IMG/VR virus record: IMGVR_UViG_3300006120_000477
Location: 1 to 52,863 of that record
DNA: 52,863 nucleotides
Source of the DNA: a virus
Taxonomy: Duplodnaviria > Caudoviricetes
Reading direction: 5' to 3' (one strand)
Part shown: positions 2,517 to 27,400 of the stretch, piece by piece
Layout of the letters: each line of letters starts with the position of its first letter
Position numbering within the stretch: position 1 is the first letter of the stretch
Position numbers and translations under genes: made by a program
Notes under the pieces: generated by a model
The model's input: the letters and a program-made list of their open reading frames with translations, nothing else
The model's database searches: none
What the model was told of the DNA's origin: nothing

Positions 2517-2812
2517 TCATATTCAGAGTTGCCTGTCTTGAAACGGACATAGAGATACTCAGGATTATCTGGATCGGTTCGTTCTTCTAAAATCTCTGTG
2601 ATAACTGTTGTTTGCCAATAATCTTGAGCAGTAAATGATCTTGCATAATGAGAACCAACTCGCATAACAGCACCAACACGAGGCTCGGCATTCTCAATCT
2701 CTTCTACCGAGACAGCCTTACCAGTATCTTGATCAAAGGTTGGAATACAAGCAAGACTCATCAGACCGCTATCTCCAGCACCATCACGAATCCTATACAA
2801 TGAATATGTCAT
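2501..2812 (-). CDS. Hypothetical protein
   Basis: 103 aa ORF coupled to neighbouring genes. Confidence 0.65.
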   Translation of the reverse strand: MTYSLYRIRDGAGDSGLMSLACIPTFDQDTGKAVSVEEIENAEPRVGAVMRVGSHYARSFTAQDYWQTTVITEILEERTDPDNPEYLYVRFKTGNSEYEWTRN

Positions 2813-3813
2813 TATGAAGTCCTATAACTAAACTGTGCAGCAGGAACCTTTAGATCCTTGCCTTCATATTCATATACAAGAGAAGCACACAATGCATTCC
2901 ATTGATTAGCAATCCTTGACCAAGAATATCTATAATCTGAAAAAGTCTTCTGGAACTGTAGATATGGATACATATCAGTTTCTTTCATGCGGTTAATTGT
3001 ATCATTTAAAATAGCATAAAACATATTAGCATGAACATTCTGGTCCTGATCCCAATTATACTGCATGGTAATACCACCAGAAGTATCTGTCAATCCTGCA
3101 TAATTTGGATGGATACAAACACAACCGGCAGACATTGCTTCAATCAATGAACGGCTATTCTGCTCTGGCCAAATTGAGGGATAAGCAAAAATATGAGCCT
3201 TTGCCATATGTTCACGAACAACATCATTTGGTTGAAATCCATGATAATTAATCTTAGGATGATTTCGGCACCGATCAAATAATTCTTCAAATTGTTGATC
3301 TGCTTCAGCCCAACCATAAATCTTATAGCTAGAAAAGACATCCAGAACCAGATTATCGTGATGCTTGCAGAGTTCTTCAAATACAGGAACTAGAAGTGAT
3401 AGACCCCTCTGCGGCGTAGATGCATAAATTAGCCGAATCTCTTCCTTGGCATCACCCTTATTAATTGGACCAAGTGGTTCAATAGCAGTGTCAATCACAC
3501 AAGTCTTTTGATCATGAGGAATACCAAGAAAGTTCTGATATTGATTCATCTGGTAATTTCCGCAGTACACAATTTTGTGGAACTTATTGCGAAAATTTGG
3601 ATCCTTCAGTTGTTGACTCTCAGGATCTTGGGCTGTGTTATGTAGCCATAGAATTCGAATTCTATCATCATATAGTTCTCTTACCCGAGAAGAGATAATC
3701 TGAAACTTATCATGATATTCAGGATTTAGTCGGGCAAGCATACCCTCGACCATCATTTCAGAACCACCGTGACTCTTGGCATTCATCTCATCACGAGAAA
3801 AGATTTCACTCAT
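2812..3813 (-). CDS. Glycosyltransferase, GT-B fold (family 4-like)
   Basis: HGGSE at N-terminus, LIYASTPQRGL, FAYPSIWPEQNSRSLIEAMSAGC. Confidence 0.85.
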   Translation of the reverse strand: MSEIFSRDEMNAKSHGGSEMMVEGMLARLNPEYHDKFQIISSRVRELYDDRIRILWLHNTAQDPESQQLKDPNFRNKFHKIVYCGNYQMNQYQNFLGIPHDQKTCVIDTAIEPLGPINKGDAKEEIRLIYASTPQRGLSLLVPVFEELCKHHDNLVLDVFSSYKIYGWAEADQQFEELFDRCRNHPKINYHGFQPNDVVREHMAKAHIFAYPSIWPEQNSRSLIEAMSAGCVCIHPNYAGLTDTSGGITMQYNWDQDQNVHANMFYAILNDTINRMKETDMYPYLQFQKTFSDYRYSWSRIANQWNALCASLVYEYEGKDLKVPAAQFSYRTS

Positions 3814-4775
3814 ACTTTATTCAATTCCTTCTTTACAAACTCATAATGAGAATCAACAATTTCAGAAATGGTTTTAGTGGGTTCCCACTTTAGTTCCTGC
3901 CTGAGTGCAGTATTATCAGAAAACAAATATCCGGGGTCTCCATCTCGTCTTGGCGCAAAATCATAATTCAAACCATATAGATCTTTAACCATATTAGCAA
4001 GCTGAATATTAGAATATCCTACTCCAGACCCTACATTATATTGTGTATATGAAGTTGGAGCATCAGTTTGGATTTCCTTTGCGGCTGCAATAAGTGCCTG
4101 ACATACATCATAGACATGAATGTAATCCCTAACACAACTTTGGTCAAAGGTATTAAAATCATTGCCATTGATGTAGAATGTCTCATTATTTATAGACGCC
4201 TGACACATCTTGGTGAGAATGTGTGGTTGATCCAAATCCTGCCCCATACCATCAAACCCACCAGTGACATTGAAGAACCTCATGGAATATGCGCGCATAC
4301 CATATGCATTACAAGATTCTTCTAGGATTCGTTCACCGAACCATTTACTCCAACCATAAGGGTTGATAGGATAACCAGCATCTTCTTCTTTAAGAGCAAT
4401 ATTCTTATTAGGATCGCCATATGTTGCAGCAGATGATGCAAAGATAATTGGTGTATCTGGCTGTTCGTTTTTGATATTCTTTAGCATATCAATCATGCCA
4501 GAAACATTATTATCAAAATAATCCAGAGGATTCTTTACAGAAGGGCCAAGTAGACTATTAGCACCTAGATGGAAAATTACATCATACTTATGCTGAATAT
4601 ATGGTCGAGGATTTCCATAATGACCAACATAGTAATGATGAAAATCTGTCTCATCAAGTTCCCAATGAACTGGTTCTTTCAGATCAAGACCAAAGACCTG
4701 CCAGCCTTCATCTTTTAGAATCTTACAGAGAATACGACCGATATAGCCCTCGGCACCGGTTACCAAAGCCTTCAC
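3810..4775 (-). CDS. galE: NAD-dependent sugar epimerase (UDP-glucose 4-epimerase-like)
   Basis: VTGAEGYIG, FASSAATYG, PINPYGWSK (YxxxK), VRDYIHV, RRDGDP. Confidence 0.85.
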   Translation of the reverse strand: MKALVTGAEGYIGRILCKILKDEGWQVFGLDLKEPVHWELDETDFHHYYVGHYGNPRPYIQHKYDVIFHLGANSLLGPSVKNPLDYFDNNVSGMIDMLKNIKNEQPDTPIIFASSAATYGDPNKNIALKEEDAGYPINPYGWSKWFGERILEESCNAYGMRAYSMRFFNVTGGFDGMGQDLDQPHILTKMCQASINNETFYINGNDFNTFDQSCVRDYIHVYDVCQALIAAAKEIQTDAPTSYTQYNVGSGVGYSNIQLANMVKDLYGLNYDFAPRRDGDPGYLFSDNTALRQELKWEPTKTISEIVDSHYEFVKKELNKV

Positions 4776-19086: not shown

Positions 19087-19139
19087 AAAATCTCCTATTG
19101 GTTTCGATGGAGACAATATAAGATGATTCGCAGATGATG

Positions 19140-19595
19140 TCAATATATATTTTTGAGTGCCTCGCGTAAATCTAATGCTTCATCTGGCTTGCACCAATTT
19201 GTATAAATTTTTGATCTAATATTTCCATTAATCCATTGATCTGGATTTTCTAAAGCACCAACCAAATATAACGCCAATTCTTCCGTATACACCAAAGATC
19301 CTTTAGAAGTCACAAAGGTTAAAATTTCTCTGGCGAAATCATCAGTTCCATGTTCTTTAACAAATTCAATAATAACCGGAGAAGATGAATAATAAGTCAT
19401 CCAATCAGAAGATACCATTGTTTTCTTCTTTTTTTTATTCACGGTTGTATATTTTGGCTTCTGCAAAAGTTTACGCCCGATATATTTTTTTCCTGTAGAT
19501 TTTTGAACAAGAAGATATATGAAACCTATATACTTTTTGTCCTTAGGCAAATCGTCTTCAGAGTTTATCGGTTCACCCCTGTAATACCAAGTCAC
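19140..19595 (-). CDS. denA: GIY-YIG nuclease, T4 endonuclease II-like
   Basis: GFIYL...KKYIGRK...DWMTYYSSS...FAREIL; located near nrdB as in T4. Confidence 0.65.
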   Translation of the reverse strand: MTWYYRGEPINSEDDLPKDKKYIGFIYLLVQKSTGKKYIGRKLLQKPKYTTVNKKKKKTMVSSDWMTYYSSSPVIIEFVKEHGTDDFAREILTFVTSKGSLVYTEELALYLVGALENPDQWINGNIRSKIYTNWCKPDEALDLREALKNIY

Positions 19596-19738
19596 TCTTC
19601 TTCGTCCAAATCCTCATCAAAAAGATCCAGAGGAGAAGAACAAAATGGACAATATTCTGGTCCATTATGATTTGATGATAGAACGCTAAACTCTTCTTCG
19701 CAATCTTGACATGTTATCCAGTCTGATCTTGTTGGCAT
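19592..19738 (-). CDS. Small zinc-ribbon protein with acidic tail (48 aa)
   Basis: Manual ORF ...CQDC...YCPFC...DEDLDEEE. Confidence 0.65.
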   Translation of the reverse strand: MPTRSDWITCQDCEEEFSVLSSNHNGPEYCPFCSSPLDLFDEDLDEEE

Positions 19739-20130
19739 ATTTTTACTCCACATTTTTCTAGAAAGTCAATACCACTGGTATCGCGATATTTATCTTTGTA
19801 GAAAACAGTAGAGATTCCTGCTTGATGTATAGCCTTGGCACAATCAATACAAGGAGAAAGTGTGATGAACATCGTGGCGTCAGATGAGGATTCGGTAGAT
19901 TGACACAACTTCATCAAAGCATTCATCTCAGAGTGCAATACTTCTGGTTTGGTCAGACCATGTTCATCTTCACAACAGTTATCAAATCCCTTTGGAGTTC
20001 CGTTGTATCCAAAAGATAGAATGCGACCATCTTTGACGATCACACAACCAACTTGTTTCCTTTTGGCATAGGAAAGAGTGGCTGTTTCTTCAGCCACTCT
20101 CATGAAATAATCGATGAACTTTTTTTTCAA
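19714..20130 (-). CDS. cd: dCMP deaminase
   Basis: GYNGTP, HSEMNA, LSPCIDC. Confidence 0.9.
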   Translation of the reverse strand: MKKKFIDYFMRVAEETATLSYAKRKQVGCVIVKDGRILSFGYNGTPKGFDNCCEDEHGLTKPEVLHSEMNALMKLCQSTESSSDATMFITLSPCIDCAKAIHQAGISTVFYKDKYRDTSGIDFLEKCGVKICQQDQTG

Positions 20131-20255
20131 GGACGACCTTGCCCCCGATAAGGTTTGAAGCTCCTCTTTTTGCTCTTATTCATAGATGCCATCTTCGGAT
20201 TACGAATGCTCTGTGAAGTCTTCTTAGTAGTAGTAATTGCATTCTTTAGTGCCAT
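20127..20255 (-). CDS. Small basic protein (42 aa) ending in YRGQGR
   Basis: Manual ORF, AAGGAG SD. Confidence 0.6.
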   Translation of the reverse strand: MALKNAITTTKKTSQSIRNPKMASMNKSKKRSFKPYRGQGRP

Positions 20256-20267
20256 AATAAAATCTCC

Positions 20268-20675
20268 TTAAAGTTTAAATCCAGTAAAAGTGTTTTCAGT
20301 GACATCTTGATTTACACCGCCAATAACATAGGAAACTAGCTCCGATTCTTGTGGTGCGATTTGGACTTCAGATCCGGCAATCCATTTAGTAGTCCATGGC
20401 AATGGATTTGGACCCGGCTTACCATTTAATCCAATAGTTCCCATACGCTTTGCTGCAATATGATCAATATATTCGCAGAGTAGTTGCTCATTTAGACCGA
20501 TCATCGATCCATCCTTGAAAAGGTAATGTGCCCACGCCTTTTCTTGTTCGACCACCTCATAAAACATCTTGATGCATTCATCCCTTGTCTCTTCCTGTAT
20601 CTTAGCAAAGTCTGCATCTTCTTTTGGAAGAATCTTCAGGAGGTTTTGAGTCGCGGCAAGATGCAAATTTTCGTC
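20268..20675 (-). CDS. nrdB: Ribonucleotide reductase beta subunit, 3' exon
   Basis: DENLH (iron ligands)...EKAWAHYLF...APQESE..SY. Confidence 0.9.
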   Translation of the reverse strand, partial: DENLHLAATQNLLKILPKEDADFAKIQEETRDECIKMFYEVVEQEKAWAHYLFKDGSMIGLNEQLLCEYIDHIAAKRMGTIGLNGKPGPNPLPWTTKWIAGSEVQIAPQESELVSYVIGGVNQDVTENTFTGFKL

Positions 20676-20876
20676 CGTTTTGTTCTAGAAAATTCGTTAT
20701 TCTTTCTACTGTTATTAACAGCTTTATGTTTCCATAAAGACCAGACTATATCATATCCCATAATTCATATCCTTAGACTTAGAAGTATGGAACCCCTACG
20801 TTTCGTTCATACTTATGAACTACTCTACTAAGTTCTATATTAAAAGTTTCCCAATAATATATCCGTTCGATAGTCG

Positions 20877-21611
20877 TTAGCGTCGTGTGTCGTATATTTT
20901 CCAAGCAATTTTCCAAGATTTTCTTAAATTAATCTGCACTATTGTATTTGATTTCATTGCATATTCGGTAGCGATGTCTTTTAGTAGTTTGTTTCCTCTA
21001 TTGACAATCGCATCTATTATTTCGAGTTGAGATTCTAGATTAATTTTTCCGCACATGCCGTTCGATTTGAAAGCGGGAATTTTAGAGATTGGGTGTTTTT
21101 CAAACAGATGCTTCCATCTTTTATTATATCTTATAGCAGATACTTGTCTATTATCAATTCCAGTAATTCTCTCTATTTCAGTATTACCACAACCTTCAAC
21201 AATCAAATCCATAACACGTATAATTTCATCTTCGGAATATATATTAGCCGAATTCAATGTTCCTTGATTTATTTTAGATAACTTTTCTAAAGTATGATTT
21301 GATGTATGAGTTGCCCCTCGTCCCCAACCTATTTTTAAATTGGTAAGAGTTCCGCCATCCTCTACTCTTTTATACTTCATAATAAGTTCATATTCAATAT
21401 CAAAAGCATCAGATTCCGTCAAACAATCTTTTACTATATTAATTGTTGCTTTGTGACCATCGCGTTCTATAGATTTACATTTTCTAGTAAAAAATTCATT
21501 TCTATGTTTTTCGTAAGTATTATAGACTCGCTTACCTTTACCTTTGCCAACATAAAACACTTCATCATTTCTTGGATCAACATATTCATATACGTAATAT
21601 ACACTTTTCAT
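20877..21611 (-). CDS. Intron-encoded GIY-YIG homing endonuclease
   Basis: YYVYEY...FYVGKG...R...E...LTN, C-terminal HTH-like repeats; own late promoter. Confidence 0.85.
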   Translation of the reverse strand: MKSVYYVYEYVDPRNDEVFYVGKGKGKRVYNTYEKHRNEFFTRKCKSIERDGHKATINIVKDCLTESDAFDIEYELIMKYKRVEDGGTLTNLKIGWGRGATHTSNHTLEKLSKINQGTLNSANIYSEDEIIRVMDLIVEGCGNTEIERITGIDNRQVSAIRYNKRWKHLFEKHPISKIPAFKSNGMCGKINLESQLEIIDAIVNRGNKLLKDIATEYAMKSNTIVQINLRKSWKIAWKIYDTRR

Positions 21612-21633
21612 AGTTCGCTCCTATTTCGCACAC

Positions 21634-21641
21634 TATTTATA
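21634..21641 (-). promoter_or_regulatory. Late promoter for the intron endonuclease
   Basis: TATAAATA followed by hairpin ATAGT..CG/CG..ACTATG around AGGAG. Confidence 0.75.
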
Positions 21642-21742
21642 AAATGTATATTCTCTACACGGCGTCGGGATTGTCTTCTTCAAGATGTCCCCCGATTTAT
21701 AGGGTTTTCAACATCATATTACTATGATGTGCCGCCAAATTA

Positions 21743-21916
21743 ACGGGCAATTAGTTTGATAATCTTTGCGTTGCCTTCCATTTTTTTGAGTTCGGCAAAG
21801 TTCCATGAACACGCAAAACTACAGTAAAAGCGAATCCCTTCCAATGCATTAACTGCATTCAGAGTTAGCCACAATCTCTTTTTGTGCTCATATTTTGATA
21901 ATTTTGTTTTCATCAT
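21743..21916 (-). CDS. nrdB: Ribonucleotide reductase beta subunit, middle piece (first exon of second fragment)
   Basis: [58 protein letters not shown]; absent from the ORF track. Confidence 0.88.
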
Positions 21917-22467
21917 TACTCCTTTTCTTCTTGGTTAATCTCAATTTCTGCATCATAACCATGTGCATTCACTAAATTTGTATATTCGATCAAATCATCA
22001 TAATACTTGCTGATGCTACCAGCACAATCTACGATTTCTGGGATGTCAAGCATCTCATCAAAGATCTTGGAAGGGTCAGGATAAACGTTGCGAATGATAT
22101 GAGTGTAAGAACGGGAATGAATCGTCTCGAAAAATGCCCAAGTCTGGATGAAGGTTTCCAATTCAGGAAGCGAACAAATTGGGAGAAAAGCCAAAGATGG
22201 AGCGCGACCCTGTACCGAATCCAATAGAATCTGGCGCTTGAGATTACTGGTGAAAATGTGCTTTTCATGATCTGTTAGCCCTTTAAAATCTTTACTATCA
22301 CGAGACAAGTCAATTTCTTCCGGACGCCAGTAGAAACCAAGATGTTGATCAATTAGCTTCTCAAAAATTGGATATCGTTGCTTTTCGTATCGTGCAATAT
22401 TAACTGGCTCTCCAAAAAAACAAGTTTCCTTTGTAGCATCAATTTTATTAATATCAAAAACGCTCAT
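21916..22467 (-). CDS. nrdB: Ribonucleotide reductase beta subunit, N-terminal fragment
   Basis: [24 protein letters not shown]; ends TAA overlapping the next ATG. Confidence 0.9.
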
Positions 22468-22646
22468 TCTTTATTAATCCATTCAATTTGATTTAGTGGA
22501 ACTGTTCTATTTTCAATTATACCAAAAGAATCTTTAAGTGTCAAGTCAATTGCTGTGCTATTTTCTCTAGTCTTATATTCAACAACAAACCAGAGTTTTC
22601 CAGCATCATCCCAATTATCACAATTAATTCTTATATAACTCTCCAT
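22464..22646 (-). CDS. Hypothetical protein
   Basis: 60 aa, ATGA coupling to nrdB. Confidence 0.6.
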   Translation of the reverse strand: MESYIRINCDNWDDAGKLWFVVEYKTRENSTAIDLTLKDSFGIIENRTVPLNQIEWINKE

Positions 22647-22648
22647 AA

Positions 22649-24304
22649 TTATTTCCTAAAAATATAAAGGATATGTCCACAATCCCATGTCCTAACATAA
22701 CCAGAATCGATCATATTTTCATATTCCGTCTTGTTTGCATCAAAATTATGAATGATGTTTTTCAACCTATGCTTCATTGTCTGATATCTAGATAGAGTTC
22801 GATTGCCCCTATGATAACAATAAGACTGTGGGGTAATACTCAATTCATCAAATCCACATAAAGTATATATGTTCTTTTTACGAGAAGTATATCGCCTATC
22901 AGCAAATGAATAAATGTTTTGGCATGACATTTTAGATATACATTTCTGTAGCGCACCAACAAGTTTAACATTTGTGCAATATCGGATCAATTCCAATCCA
23001 TCTCTAAATTTTCCAAACGTTGCAACTCCAACCAAAACTCCATTATTATAAAAACCATATCGAATAGATCCAATTCGTTTTGAATCTTGGATATGATTAT
23101 TATTAAGAAATTGTCTGGCAACACTATTAGAAATTTGATGTAATTCTAAATATTTAGCATAAATTACATCATTTTCCTTGCACAACATCGAACGAATTTT
23201 ATTTAGAACTTTATCTTTATTTTCTAAATATACGTTTTCTTGTATAGTGACAAGATGTATACCCAAATTCTCGCATTTATTAAGTTTGTCTATTACATGT
23301 TCTTTTGGCCGCAAACTATCACAATGCCAATATGTTCCATTATATTCTATAGCAAGATTCATAGATGGAATATAAATATCCAATTCTCCATCTATAACGT
23401 TTCTGGTATTATTTTCAAAATCAAACCCCAATGATTTCACAAAATCCCCAATCTCAATTTCTCCCTTAGAACGAAAGGTTGGTTTCCATCTTTTGTTTTG
23501 CGGAAGATTTGGGTCTAATTCTAAATTATGTAAAATTTTATTAAAATGAGATTGACTATACCCAATCTCATCACACAGTTTATACGATGGCATACCAGAA
23601 GAATAATTATCTACAATATATTCTGCTTGCTCTCTCCAACCTTTATAGTTTGCGTTTATATTATTTTTCTTGAAAGATTCTGATTGAGTAAAATGTTCTA
23701 CTCCATATCTTTCTAAACAGGTTGCCTTAGTTTTGTCATTATACTCTTCAGTTTTATTATAATGATCAACTCCATATCTTTCTAAACAAGTATATTTGGC
23801 TCTATCTCTTATAATTGGCGATTTAAATGCATTATCCACTCCATATATTTCTAGACAAGTGGATTTAACCTCATCTTTAAATTGTTCACTACTAAAGTTT
23901 TTCACATATCCATATCGTTCAACCATAGTAGTTTCTCTTTTACGATTTAATTCATCCTTTTTGTCTATCCACATACATCCAGAACAGGTTTCTGGATAAC
24001 GTCTTTTTGATATAGAATATGATAAGGGTTTTTCACAATATTTACAGTTTGGGTGCTCTGTCGCTCCAATTTCAAATAAATGTAATCGTTCATTCAGTGA
24101 ATAATCTCCAAAATTGATCTTGGAATGAATATAATCGAATAGCCAATTATATTCATTCCATTGTGTTATATCATTAGCAGACTTTCTAATTCTACCCTTT
24201 TCATTACTAATGATTGACCGCAGAATTTTAACCATCATTACAGTATCAAAATCAACAATATTGGTTTCATTTAGAGGATATAAAGGAGAAAAATCAAATC
24301 TCAT
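22649..24304 (-). CDS. Large Hef/Vsr-like putative homing endonuclease with TCLERYGV repeats and GNAT-like C-terminus
   Basis: Four T(C/M)xE(R/I)YGV-type repeats; SKGE..ELDIYIP..AIEYNGTYWH; FLNNNHIQ..ELIRYC..SFADRR..WDCG. Confidence 0.7.
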   Translation of the reverse strand: MRFDFSPLYPLNETNIVDFDTVMMVKILRSIISNEKGRIRKSANDITQWNEYNWLFDYIHSKINFGDYSLNERLHLFEIGATEHPNCKYCEKPLSYSISKRRYPETCSGCMWIDKKDELNRKRETTMVERYGYVKNFSSEQFKDEVKSTCLEIYGVDNAFKSPIIRDRAKYTCLERYGVDHYNKTEEYNDKTKATCLERYGVEHFTQSESFKKNNINANYKGWREQAEYIVDNYSSGMPSYKLCDEIGYSQSHFNKILHNLELDPNLPQNKRWKPTFRSKGEIEIGDFVKSLGFDFENNTRNVIDGELDIYIPSMNLAIEYNGTYWHCDSLRPKEHVIDKLNKCENLGIHLVTIQENVYLENKDKVLNKIRSMLCKENDVIYAKYLELHQISNSVARQFLNNNHIQDSKRIGSIRYGFYNNGVLVGVATFGKFRDGLELIRYCTNVKLVGALQKCISKMSCQNIYSFADRRYTSRKKNIYTLCGFDELSITPQSYCYHRGNRTLSRYQTMKHRLKNIIHNFDANKTEYENMIDSGYVRTWDCGHILYIFRK

Positions 24305-25317
24305 ATTTTACACGAATCGCAATCATTTTCGTCAATTCCATCAGAACTTAATTGTACATCAAGATTGATTTCTCCAGCACCATCATTGGTATTGAGATAA
24401 TATCCGCATTTTCCACCAAAACGATAATGCATTAACATATCACCCAATAGAACCGACATGGGAATCTTATTATCTGGATAGTGGGCTGGATTATAAGAGA
24501 AATTAACCGAAATTGCCTGATCAATAAACTTCTGAAGCACAGCACAAATCTTTAGATAACCCTCTGGTGACTTTTGATCCCATAGAAGTTCATACTTGTT
24601 CTTATACTTAGCAATACCGGGAACGACCTGCTTCAGAGTTCCGTCCTTTGATTGTTTTACTGACACCAATGCTCTTGGTGGTTCAATGCCATTCGTCGAG
24701 TTGGAAATCTGAGCGGACGTTTCAGCAGGCATTAGAGCCATCAGAGTTGAATTGCGAATACCATAAAGAAAAGCATCCCCACGAAGAGTATCCCAATCCA
24801 TTTTATAATCTGGATTTGGTATAAGTTCGTCAACTTCTCTCTTATATGTATCAATAGGCATTACGCCCTCGCCATATCTAGTTTCGGTATGTTTAGGACA
24901 AGGACCGACACCAGATTCCTTTGCTAAATCTACAGAAGCCTTGATAAGGTAATAAGACCATGCCTCAGCATATTCGTGAACCAATTCAAGATTCGGATCG
25001 GAATAGTTACTGCCATTGCGAGAAAGCCAATAAGCCAAGTTGATAATACCGACACCCAGAGGGCGACGATTAAGAGTAGACATACGAGCGGCGTTGACAG
25101 GGTAAGACTGATAATCAAGAAGCGCATCCAAAGCTCTGACTGCAAGTGTGCAGGGTTTCTCGAAGTCGCTTGGCTTCTTGATCTTGCCCCAGTTGATGGC
25201 CGACAAAGTACACAACGACACCTCTGATTTACTATCAGATTCAAAAACTTCTGTAACATAGACATGATCCTTATCCGATACATCAATTTCATCTACTATT
25301 TCATATTTAAAGTTCAT
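24301..25317 (-). CDS. nrdA: Ribonucleotide reductase alpha subunit, C-terminal fragment (NrdA-b)
   Basis: SLCTLSAIN, RRPLGVG, LMPAETS, DQAIS, GYY, C-terminal CDSC. Confidence 0.92.
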   Translation of the reverse strand: MNFKYEIVDEIDVSDKDHVYVTEVFESDSKSEVSLCTLSAINWGKIKKPSDFEKPCTLAVRALDALLDYQSYPVNAARMSTLNRRPLGVGIINLAYWLSRNGSNYSDPNLELVHEYAEAWSYYLIKASVDLAKESGVGPCPKHTETRYGEGVMPIDTYKREVDELIPNPDYKMDWDTLRGDAFLYGIRNSTLMALMPAETSAQISNSTNGIEPPRALVSVKQSKDGTLKQVVPGIAKYKNKYELLWDQKSPEGYLKICAVLQKFIDQAISVNFSYNPAHYPDNKIPMSVLLGDMLMHYRFGGKCGYYLNTNDGAGEINLDVQLSSDGIDENDCDSCKI

Positions 25318-25918
25318 TTTGTTTCCTTAAATGCTTTGCAAGATTACCCAAATCCCATTCGCGCCGACAACATAAACAACAAGCCTTTTTGCCAGAATTA
25401 AGATATGAAAATCCATGAGGTTTCTTTTTAAAATTATATTTACCTCTCTTAACTCCTCGTCTAGTTTCAGCAGATTTTTTACCTACTTCTTTACTTTTTT
25501 CCGTGCTACCTAATTTTAATCCTTTATTCCAGGCTTTTTGACCCATATGACCTAAAGAATTGTTGATTCTGTGTTCCGTCGATTGCGGACCTATCTTTCT
25601 ACCTTTAGTTTTTATACTCATGGCGACATAATCTCTAAAAGCAGACGTATCTCCACCACTTCCATTTTCTTCAATAAAATTGGCCCAGTTAGGAGAATTA
25701 ACCACATCCCATAATTTGGAATAGTATAACCCTTGTTCTTTTATTTGTAATATATCATCAGATTGAAATAGAATCTCTGTTTGAATATCTTTACCATATT
25801 TGTTCAGTTCTCTTTTCCATCTCTTTCCTGAACCCAAGTATTTGAATGGATCTTGCTCTGTCTTACCAAGATATTTTAGCCCTGTAACTTTATGCGTTTT
25901 AACATATAGTGTAATCAT
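25307..25918 (-). CDS. Free-standing GIY-YIG (Seg-like) endonuclease splitting nrdA
   Basis: LYVKTH..TGLKYLGKT..YLGSG; NUMOD3-like KAWNKG; C-terminal CxxC..H. Confidence 0.8.
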   Translation of the reverse strand: MITLYVKTHKVTGLKYLGKTEQDPFKYLGSGKRWKRELNKYGKDIQTEILFQSDDILQIKEQGLYYSKLWDVVNSPNWANFIEENGSGGDTSAFRDYVAMSIKTKGRKIGPQSTEHRINNSLGHMGQKAWNKGLKLGSTEKSKEVGKKSAETRRGVKRGKYNFKKKPHGFSYLNSGKKACCLCCRREWDLGNLAKHLRKQNEL

Positions 25919-25946
25919 AGTAGTGTTCTCCTCACTACTATTTATA
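25915..25946 (-). promoter_or_regulatory. Late promoter and SD-sequestering hairpin for the nrdA-splitting endonuclease
   Basis: TATAAATA 25939-25946; ATAGTAGTG-AGGAGAA-CACTACTAT(G). Confidence 0.8.
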
Positions 25947-25948
25947 CT

Positions 25949-27400
25949 TTATCTGCTTTTAATTGGGGTATTTAGATTATTTTTCTTCCATTCAAGATAT
26001 TTTTGATACTCTTCTTTAGTCATTTTCATTGTTTTGACTACTGGGCCACCATCATGAATATCCTTCAGTGGTGTGGTGGGCAAACATATTTCCTGGCACA
26101 AATTTGACATACGAATAGGAGCCAAATCCTTGATAAAGGAACCATGATCGTTTGCATGATCAACATTCATAAAATAAATACGACCAGTATCCTTTCGTTC
26201 TTGCATGAATGCAGAAAACAATTCAATCGCAGGAACAACCTTCTTGCGAATCTTCTTGTCCTTTTCATACTTCTCATAGAGAGTTCTGAACTTATCTACG
26301 TCAACGAAAAACGAATCATAAAGATCAGGCACATCACTTGGAGAAAACAAAGTAATATTTCCACCAGAGAGCAACCGTTCATACATTACCTTATTGAACT
26401 GAACAGAATAATCTAGATGACGAATACGATTATCTTCAGTTCCCTTGTTGTTCTTAAGGACAAGAAGATCCTCCACTTCGTAATGCCAAAGGGGGTAATG
26501 GAGCGTCGCTGCCCCGGACCTTGTGCCGCCTTGCGAGCACGACTTAACCGCACTCTGAAAATACTTGTAAAAGGGTATGACGCCAGTATGAGAAGTGTCA
26601 CCATTACGGACGGGAGAACCAATAGCCCTAATCCTACCAGCACCAATGCCGATTCCAGCCTTTTGTGAAACATATTTTACAATGGCCGATGATGTAGCAT
26701 TGATTGAGTCCAATGAATCATCGGTTTCGATAAGTACGCAAGAACTAAATTGGCGCTGAGGCGACCTGACTCCTGCCATGATTGGAGTAGGAAGACTGAT
26801 ATCAAAAGTGCTGATTGCATCGTATAGTTCCTTTACCCACTTGAGTCGATCTTTGGTGTAGTTCTGAAAGAGAGTCATGGCAATCAACATGAAAGCCATC
26901 TGAGGAGTTTCATAGAACTGACCGGTTACGCGATTCTTGATTAGATACTTGCCTCGGAATTGTTCCATCGCAGCATATGTGAGAAGATTGTCTCGGTCAT
27001 GATCAATATACTGACCGAGTTCTAACCATTCTTCTGCTGAGTAAGCATGTTTAATCTCCGAGTCATAATAACCCCGGTTCATTACTACTTGGTAATGATA
27101 GTTCAGAGGTTCTGGGTTATATTTACCATAGACTTCCTTACGAAGATGATAGTTAATCAATCGGCCAGCAACATATTGATAATTAGGAGATTCTTCTGAG
27201 ATTAGATCTGCAGCAGCCTTGATCAGAGTTTCCTGAATGGCAGAAGTAGTAATTCCTGTATAAAACTGCAAATGGCTATTATGCTCAAGATCAGAGATTG
27301 ATACTCCACTTAGTCCCTCACATGCCCATCCCACAACCTTATGAATCTTCTCAATATTCAAAGATTCCTTAGTGCCGTCTCTTTTAGTAACCTGAACCAT
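25949..27400 (-). CDS. nrdA: Ribonucleotide reductase alpha subunit, N-terminal fragment (NrdA-a)
   Basis: ATP cone VTKRDG, PTPIMAG, QFSSC, SQGG, SNLCQEI. Confidence 0.92.
   Translation of the reverse strand: MVQVTKRDGTKESLNIEKIHKVVGWACEGLSGVSISDLEHNSHLQFYTGITTSAIQETLIKAAADLISEESPNYQYVAGRLINYHLRKEVYGKYNPEPLNYHYQVVMNRGYYDSEIKHAYSAEEWLELGQYIDHDRDNLLTYAAMEQFRGKYLIKNRVTGQFYETPQMAFMLIAMTLFQNYTKDRLKWVKELYDAISTFDISLPTPIMAGVRSPQRQFSSCVLIETDDSLDSINATSSAIVKYVSQKAGIGIGAGRIRAIGSPVRNGDTSHTGVIPFYKYFQSAVKSCSQGGTRSGAATLHYPLWHYEVEDLLVLKNNKGTEDNRIRHLDYSVQFNKVMYERLLSGGNITLFSPSDVPDLYDSFFVDVDKFRTLYEKYEKDKKIRKKVVPAIELFSAFMQERKDTGRIYFMNVDHANDHGSFIKDLAPIRMSNLCQEICLPTTPLKDIHDGGPVVKTMKMTKEEYQKYLEWKKNNLNTPIKSR

Follow-up and report, generated by a model that had tools for sequence, protein, structure and literature searches.

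The stretch of DNA considered here (hereafter, the window) is the 52,863-base IMG/VR virus record IMGVR_UViG_3300006120_000477, which was judged to be 29% complete, has a G+C content of 37% and belongs to a freshwater T4-like phage. The gene order is T4-like (nrdA, an endonuclease gene, a small open reading frame (ORF), nrdB and the dCMP deaminase gene), and the subject of the present analysis is nrdB, encoding the class Ia small subunit (NrdB/R2). The megablast search of the locus against named phages gave no match; the closest named phages, in which nrdB is continuous, were ~60–67% identical in protein. The nrdB gene is located on the minus strand and is composed of three coding parts. The nrdB-a cistron (piece 1; 22467..21919, minus strand) encodes 183 amino acids (aa), which correspond to the N-terminal half of the R2 fold and end in an acidic tail. 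It is followed by the junction AAGGAG-TAA-TG-ATG (21911..21924, minus strand), which contains the stop, the Shine–Dalgarno sequence (SD) and the start in a space of 14 nt. Exon 1 of nrdB-b (piece 2; 21743..21913, minus strand) encodes 57 aa from the second ATG, including a basic head and helix E, and ends with ...KLIAR at the 5' splice site. A putative group I intron (20676..21742, minus strand; 1067 nt) lies between ...LIAR and DENLH... and carries a GIY-YIG-like homing endonuclease gene (20877..21611, minus strand; 244 aa). Exon 2 of nrdB-b (20268..20675, minus strand) encodes 135 aa plus the stop, from DENLH to the C-terminal ...FTGFKL. Piece 1 and exon 2 matched the PF00268 profile with 76.9 and 41.9 bits, respectively, above the cut-off of 33.6 bits, whereas piece 2 alone scored 26.6 bits, below this cut-off; the three parts jointly span profile positions 7–271 of 281.

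Piece 1 ends in GAA GAA AAG GAG TAA, with the TAA at 21918–21916 and the AAGGAG at 21924–21919, the SD doubling as the tail codons K-E. The first ATG (21916–21914) shares one A with the TAA and is spaced 2 nt from the AAGGAG, and the second ATG (21913–21911) is spaced 5 nt from it. The second ATG, which is the one homologous to the ATG of the relatives, is the likely start of piece 2. The ORF of piece 2 (21916..21743) comprises 58 aa when counted from the first ATG and is in the −1 (= +2) frame, which opens just 6 codons ahead of the ATG and has no alternative start codon inside. The TAA is the usual stop here, ending 24 of the 37 minus-strand ORFs of at least 150 aa. According to the original prediction, which was made from the letters of the window, nrdB is broken by a stop and restart without an intervening element, with the restart in the −1 frame at the overlapping ATG ATG and the SD 5 nt ahead of the second ATG; these coordinates and frames were confirmed, and the spacer was 2–3 nt in relatives. 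According to the original prediction, the break may be the scar of a lost endonuclease; an ORF at the break was found in none of the 245 related loci, where the largest gap between the piece 1 and piece 2 matches was ~127 nt (L048).

The break is also present in relatives of the window phage. The same tail motif was detected by a degenerate DNA pattern search in two IMG/VR and five metagenome stretches, and the protein collection contained N-pieces of 183–184 aa with identities of 99, 93, 85, 86, 79 and 75%, all of which end in ...GY.A..EI..EE[KR]E. Three further N-pieces (72, 69 and 68%), the more distant split forms P0017, P0021 and P0032, are known from protein alone, carry the motif HGYGAEIEI or YGYDVELEI and have longer ends; when P0017 and P0032 were used as queries in IMG/VR, continuous relatives only were obtained. 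The junctions had three geometries, namely, TAATGATG, TAATAATG and TAAGTAATG: AAGGAG TAA TG ATG AAA in type 1 (the window, L006, L088 and L089), AAGGAG TAA TA ATG AAA in type 2 (L086 and L092) and AGGGAG TAA GTA ATG AAG in type 3 (L090). The metagenome contigs L088, L089 and L091 have a junction identical to that of the window; it should be noted that L087, L091 and L006 are one contig present more than once. The stop, the AAGGAG or AGGGAG located 5–6 nt ahead of the ATG and the ATG itself are kept in all three junction types. L090 differs in that pieces 1 and 2 share one frame, separated by an in-frame TAA, and that the −1 frame runs into a stop. Searching with part 2 revealed homologues among short ORFs (P0241, P0242 and P0250), of which P0242 is a 57-aa ORF with 81% identity (MKIKLSRYEHKKK...FIAR); part 2 of L090 has 34 aa.

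Among the 245 related loci, some of which are the same contig counted twice, 237 were continuous, seven were split and one (L089) ended just past the junction. Continuous relatives reached 86% identity to piece 1 (L007). Continuity of close relatives had been named in the original prediction as an observation that would speak against a split gene; such relatives do exist, but they do not refute this reading because split relatives exist as well. Judged by its recurrence, with sequence changes, in diverged relatives, the split arrangement is beyond chance.

Between the split lineages, the ratio of nonsynonymous to synonymous substitution rates (dN/dS) was 0.06–0.20 for piece 1 (dS from 0.25 to >2) and 0.03–0.13 for piece 2 (dS >1), and synonymous sites were near or past saturation for the more distant split pairs. 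For the 17-codon tail, dS was 0.42–0.75 and dN was 0.10–0.24. No further stop was found inside any part of any split locus. The two-cistron architecture is inherited and has been kept by selection in several diverged phage lineages. The purifying selection acting on both pieces gives indirect support to the predicted synthesis of both polypeptides and to their predicted assembly into an active enzyme.

Matches to Escherichia coli R2 were obtained from PDB structures (1RIB, 1MXR, 6W4X and others). Residues 3–166 of piece 1 aligned without gaps with residues 4–167 of R2 (E-value = 4e-65; ~59% identity in the printed alignment), and residues 6–58 of piece 2 aligned with residues 184–236 (E-value = 1.3e-15). 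The ligand and radical positions of R2 are D84, E115, H118, Y122 (the radical tyrosine), E204, E238 and H241. According to the alignment offsets, the equivalents of W48, D84, E115, H118 and Y122 fall in piece 1 and the equivalent of E204 falls in piece 2; in the ungapped R2 alignments, these are D83, E114, H117 and Y121 of piece 1 and E26 of piece 2. The equivalents of E238 and H241 are in the DENLH that opens exon 2 and is joined to piece 2 only by splicing. Consequently, the distribution of ligands given in the original prediction was correct for D, ExxH and Y in piece 1 and for E in piece 2, whereas the second ExxH belongs to the exon past the intron and not to the 58-aa ORF. All diiron ligand and tyrosine positions are intact and are invariant in alignments A2, A3 and A4. 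The product combines two features of a class Ia small subunit (NrdB/R2), namely, the PF00268 profile match and the ligands D, ExxH, E and ExxH together with Y, and the split NrdB is predicted to form the tyrosyl radical and to activate NrdA. Placed one after another, the three coding parts span the continuous NrdB of phages CBB and 121Q, and likewise the 237 continuous loci, from one end of the alignment to the other, and the summed length of the parts (183 + 57 + 135 residues) equals the 375 residues of E. coli R2.

The cut falls in the loop corresponding to residues 168–183 of R2, between its fourth and fifth long helices; we take this loop to be the sole beta-hairpin of R2 and to be surface-exposed. 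The acidic tail aligned with THVINGEE and the segment KTKLSKYE with IVVDMYE of the continuous CBB and 121Q NrdB proteins, which places the first strand and the turn in piece 1 and the second strand in piece 2. Approximately six extra residues are present between the tail and head alignments, and the distance from G to Y is 23 residues versus 17 in CBB. The net charges of the tail and head in the window are −5 and +5, respectively, in agreement with the acidic tail and basic head noted originally; among the split forms, the tails carried −2 to −6 in eight of eight cases and the heads +2 to +5 in four of four. The KYYD-to-LWL stretch of continuous relatives comprises 25–60 residues and could not be aligned even among loci that are ~80% identical elsewhere, and the canonical GEGTHTVNGK hairpin was seen only in more distant continuous relatives. 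Because both the length and the sequence of this stretch are hypervariable in continuous relatives, the cut site is judged to be a tolerant, fast-changing surface loop. The KYYD...LWL hypervariability extends over L007–L248, continuous relatives ~65–86% identical elsewhere, many of which are without the canonical hairpin.

The insert located downstream of the break gave a partial match to the Rfam Intron_gpI model (RF00028) at 20722–20840 (30.6 bits, E-value = 1.2e-5), and the L086 insert matched the same model with 26.5 bits (E-value = 2.1e-4), both below the gathering score of 50; the Rfam match came from a narrow search, and a 9-kb search at E-value ≤ 1 missed the intron. The last letter of exon 1 in the window is T and that of the insert is G, and excision restores LIAR–DENLH, which is uninterrupted in 236 relatives. 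The intron ORF matched phrog_5356 (E-value = 9.7e-14) and phrog_314, annotated as "homing endonuclease" (E-value = 3.3e-8), and had a weak Pfam LEM-3_GIY-YIG match (E-value = 0.0035). In all seven split loci that were long enough to be judged, a putative group I intron begins 105–175 nt downstream of the break, and an insert was present in all six split loci having both later parts, whereas none of the 236 scorable continuous loci carried an insert at the LIAR or YVSFA site; the scoring covered these two sites only, and the split loci form a small, related set. Two intron sites occur in the split lineages, after LIAR (window type) and after YVSFA (L086/L092), and L090 also breaks after SFA. 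The L086 insert (2767–3850) follows YVSFA, which is the site of the T4 (L249) nrdB intron, and the YVSFA-site insert of the L086/L090/L092 type carries an HNH ORF (phrog_12324, E-value = 5.7e-37). In total, three endonuclease genes are found at the locus of the window: one splitting nrdA, one of 551 aa at the mobE position and the intron-borne one.

Comparison of the window (19134–23133) with L088 (6129–10127) revealed a sharp-edged mosaic. Only two differences were found across ~19560–22300, a 2.7-kb block holding exon 2 (100% identical in L088), the intron, its endonuclease gene, piece 2, the junction and most of piece 1. The flanks of the block differ by 23–36 per 100 nt, the sequences are identical again from ~22660, and elsewhere the two contigs are 65–82% identical. 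Over the intervals 19134–19599 (a 151-aa ORF) and 22300–22699 (the nrdB 5' end and a 60-aa ORF), 13–36 differences per 100 nt were counted. A single 1-nt gap inside the intron endonuclease ORF separates the window and L088 at 21100–21199; a frameshift is therefore probable in one of the copies, and the ORF of the window is intact (244 aa). Since the near-identical 2.7-kb block is shared with L088, we infer that the junction has passed between phages in recombination tracts that also carry the intron. Such passage would fit the conversion and trans-homing of T4, where conversion extends up to 2 kb from the site of cleavage and where MobE acts in trans to mobilise the nrdB intron (PMC2790892). 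In a FastTree tree of the N-terminal 160 residues (a short alignment, with support values partly examined), split tips were interleaved with continuous ones, and the nearest neighbour was continuous for six of 10; because of recombination, this tree cannot settle whether there was a single origin. Run X10 also contains contigs from a related phage that skip 1328 nt between 20660 and 21989 and match the window on either side of this gap (19 other letters of 128); they probably represent an intron-less allele that co-occurs with that of the window and has a different loop sequence.

Taken together, these data suggest, with a probability that we put at about 0.8, that nrdB of the window is a genuine two-cistron gene whose two coupled chains, one with an acidic tail and the other with a basic head, assemble into one subunit. 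The heterodimeric genes-in-pieces NrdB of the original prediction is supported by a break kept at 93–75% identity, by the stop, SD and ATG present in three geometries, by selection and by intact ligands, and at the DNA and evolutionary level, where it is read from sequences, this interpretation is well supported. Ribosomes would end NrdB-a at the TAA and would start NrdB-b at the ATG 5–6 nt behind the SD; coupling or re-initiation is probable and would yield the pieces in approximately equal amounts, although initiation at the SD-ATG might also be independent. With the putative group I intron removed by splicing, NrdB-b would have ~192 aa. The two chains would then fold together without a covalent link, forming a single R2-like protomer whose diiron-tyrosyl site would take D, ExxH and Y from NrdB-a and E and ExxH from NrdB-b. 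The acidic tail and the basic head would stand in for the two hairpin strands of the continuous protein and pair in their manner, and their charges would help the halves to find and hold each other, similar to the charged tails of split Aeh1 NrdA. The SD coincides with the final K-E of the tail, an overlap that may explain the constancy of EE[KR]E. The junction would spread among related phages within the gene-conversion tracts generated by the intron and the homing-endonuclease genes next to it. A further idea, which we consider unlikely, is that the insert is a portable "cut-and-zip" cassette travelling in the intron/endonuclease conversion tracts and kept as immunity to an endonuclease that targets the continuous hairpin stretch; if true, this would be a radical enzyme held in two pieces by mobile-element conflict and not by a benefit to the enzyme.

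Other explanations of the break differ in what they make of the junction itself. Next to no probability can be given to a sequencing or assembly artefact in which one A was lost from an AAAA run of a really continuous gene. The window is indeed a metagenome-derived record with a four-A run in the overlap zone, but the same junction occurs without indels in four other runs and in separate metagenome contigs: the Logan contigs of runs X8, X9, X10 and X15 span 21846–22116 or more with zero gaps and no more than three other letters, so that the missing A considered in the original prediction was not seen in them, a check made at contig level only. Relatives at 85% and 79% identity are broken too, with different junction sequences, and gene callers in other collections gave 183–184-aa N-pieces six times. 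Very improbable as well is a programmed −1 frameshift or stop readthrough that fuses the pieces, with the ATG and SD being incidental or the SD acting as a stimulator. For the window and L086/L092, piece 2 does lie in the −1 frame, which is open 6–8 codons ahead of the ATG, and the AAGGAG of the junction resembles the SD-like element that stimulates shifting at an adjacent site in dnaX and prfB of E. coli. However, no single recoding event fits all three junction types, since piece 2 of L090 is in frame 0; moreover, the ATG is kept in every split relative, and the TAA is the codon that ends 24 of the 37 long ORFs here. No X_XXY_YYZ heptamer was found in the overlap zone CCAAGAAGAAAAGGAGTAA (frame 0: CAA GAA GAA AAG GAG TAA), and no stable downstream RNA structure was found in an 81-nt fold (−7 kcal/mol, z = −1.08, with 34 of 200 shuffles as good); the minimum-energy fold of these 81 nt leaves the SD and both start codons unpaired. 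With L090 in frame 0, no heptamer and no stable downstream structure, the −1 frameshift at A_AAG, which had been the second option of the original prediction, is not supported. Translational bypass of the gene 60 type was dropped because the gap is just 0–3 nt, and split inteins were dropped because intein halves are much longer than these tails.

The remaining explanations accept the break as real and differ in why it persists. The split is rare (7–8 of 245 loci) and always beside a mobile intron, it travels in a recombination tract, and homing drive could hold a damaged allele for a while, all of which would suit a decaying pseudogene carried by selfish intron and endonucleases in a phage using a host or other reductase. 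Such decay is hardly credible given dN/dS values of 0.03–0.20 on both sides of the break with saturated synonymous sites, the absence of added stops or frameshifts from every piece of the split loci, the retention of all ligands, and the conservation of the SD and ATG despite turnover of the junction sequence (tail dS 0.42–0.75); in addition, the 52.9-kb record, estimated to cover just 29% of the genome, yielded no second PF00268 gene. A real split might also be kept because the insertion destroys a homing-endonuclease target in the continuous hairpin stretch while the protein tolerates the cut. In favour of this, the locus is crowded with three endonuclease genes, relatives are hypervariable in the hairpin-coding stretch, T4 MobE, which is encoded at the position of the 551-aa ORF, nicks within nrdB (PMC2790892), and a precedent exists in the gene 60 bypass insert, which is said to protect against MobA (bioRxiv 10.1101/2022.08.31.505936). 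We nevertheless find this explanation decidedly unlikely: the hypervariability could be a plain lack of constraint in a surface loop, and hitch-hiking in conversion tracts accounts for the linkage by itself.

Several points weigh against the two-cistron reading preferred here. The junction coverage consists of assembled contigs and not of raw reads, and contigs drop rare variants. The split is a minority state, since 237 of the 245 loci are continuous, and it may be neutral or mildly costly hitch-hiking and not useful. The split lineages are not independent and, because the junction moves by recombination, may share one origin. A minor frameshifted fusion product may be formed at window- and L086-type junctions, where the −1 frame is open for 6–8 codons. 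Finally, the proposed role of the tails as a hairpin zipper is one that we infer from charge and from the alignment to GEGTHVINGEEIVV of the continuous relatives.

No paper on a split NrdB polypeptide was found in a full-text literature search conducted mostly outside subscription journals, which agrees with the original prediction, whose author knew of no equivalent split class Ia NrdB. Phage genes-in-pieces as a kind are already known. The split NrdA (nrdA-a/mobE/nrdA-b) of Aeromonas phage Aeh1 was reportedly described by Friedrich in 2007. In a 2013 survey of phage reductase genes, nrdB appears solely as an intron-interrupted gene, in T4 and T4T (PMC3653736). In Aeh1 NrdA, mobE interrupts the coding sequence between two adjacent beta-strands, and the enzyme requires the oppositely charged tails for its activity (Crona 2011, PMC3045599). 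This NrdA is the closest parallel: a T4-like class Ia subunit is encoded by two adjacent cistrons with active-site residues distributed over two chains, the cut lies between neighbouring beta-strands, and extra oppositely charged tails are present that are not found in continuous homologues. The nrdA gene of the window itself is split at the place equivalent to that in Aeh1. Unlike Aeh1 NrdA, the protein considered here is the small, predicted radical-generating subunit, the charges are reversed (acidic C-tail and basic N-head), and there is a stop/start overlap with no endonuclease gene between the nrdB pieces. Of the features that characterize genes-in-pieces made by a homing endonuclease (the Aeh1 NrdA type), two adjacent cistrons and oppositely charged tails are present, and an endonuclease between the pieces is absent.

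Splits without an endonuclease between the pieces are described for gene 43A/43B of Aeromonas phage 44RR (PMC2988022) and for nrdJ-a/nrdJ-b of Thermus phage phiYS40, where the gap is 12 nt (PMC3653736), and split Topo II ORFs lacking MobA are also on record (bioRxiv 10.1101/2022.08.31.505936). Like nrdB of the window, these genes are neighbouring cistrons with a short spacer or none, and the tails are kept after loss of the endonuclease or without it; unlike it, they encode other enzymes that are not ferritin-like diiron proteins, and no tie to a nearby intron is reported for them. The T4 nrdB locus resembles that of the window in its order (nrdA, endonuclease, small ORF, nrdB) and in having an intron in the helix E/F region; it has a group I intron (I-TevIII), with MobE trans-homing and co-conversion of the flanking exon (PMC2790892). 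T4 NrdB differs in being one polypeptide after splicing, and the intron of the window, with its GIY-YIG-like ORF, lies 22 codons downstream of the T4 site. E. coli R2 has the same ligand and radical positions and the same total length, but it is a single chain, whereas the window has a tail, a stop/start and a head, ~6 residues longer, in place of residues 168–183.

The class Ia diiron-tyrosyl cofactor is normally built within the four-helix bundle of one chain, whereas here it appears to be built from two chains, one providing three ligands and the tyrosine and the other three ligands. The split NrdB would therefore be a ready system for questions of cofactor assembly and fold tolerance and would offer a naturally validated split site for protein-fragment work. 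With it, the small subunit would join the T4-like replication and nucleotide enzymes that are fragmented in endonuclease-rich loci, and the block shared with L088, taken with the split, suggests that a gene break can be passed between phages along with an intron. Annotation, too, calls for caution, since gene callers label the halves as truncated NrdB fragments.

Other NrdB ORFs, short or C-terminal, start with a Met that falls within the second hairpin strand or immediately ahead of it: P0243 (MVKKVKISKYEIKK...), P0244 (MNYARDRGLQSYNEYDHKK...), P0246 (MQTNLYVDLKKK...) and P0204 (MANAELARYKHKERLWL...). Some of them are on contigs of 67–160 kb, and this loop may have been cut independently in them as well. 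A search with exon 2 for intron-less C-terminal pieces gave the candidates P0204 (MANAELARYKHKERLWL...), P0227 and P0218, which are known as proteins only. In the otherwise continuous locus L010 (4882–4903), the match of the last nrdB part shifts frame near residue 76–82; this change of frame is a frameshift or an assembly error.

The nrdA gene of the window (24301–27400, minus strand) is also in pieces. The nrdA-a piece has 483 aa (27400..25949) and the nrdA-b piece has 338 aa (25317..24301), the latter overlapping by 11 nt the ORF located between them. This intervening ORF (25918..25307) encodes a 203-aa homing-endonuclease-like protein (phrog_314, E-value = 4.3e-7) with distant tblastn matches to annotated homing endonucleases. 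The cut follows ...NLCQEICLPTTPLKD and precedes ...SLCTLSAIN, between the equivalents of C439 and C462, as in Aeh1, and long extra tails are present on the nrdA pieces on either side of it. In L086, nrdA is continuous at that place.

Between nrdA-b and nrdB, where T4 has mobE, the window contains the 551-aa ORF (22649–24304, minus strand), which matched phrog_3339, annotated as "homing endonuclease" (E-value = 2.8e-96), and Pfam DUF7487 (E-value = 1.3e-20) and contains repeated ...C/TLERYGV... motifs; an unrelated 229-aa ORF occupies this position in L086. The 60-aa ORF (22464–22646, minus strand) overlaps the nrdB start by ATGA and occupies the position of T4 nrdB.1, to which it had no BLASTP similarity; a 62-aa homologue of this ORF is carried by L086.

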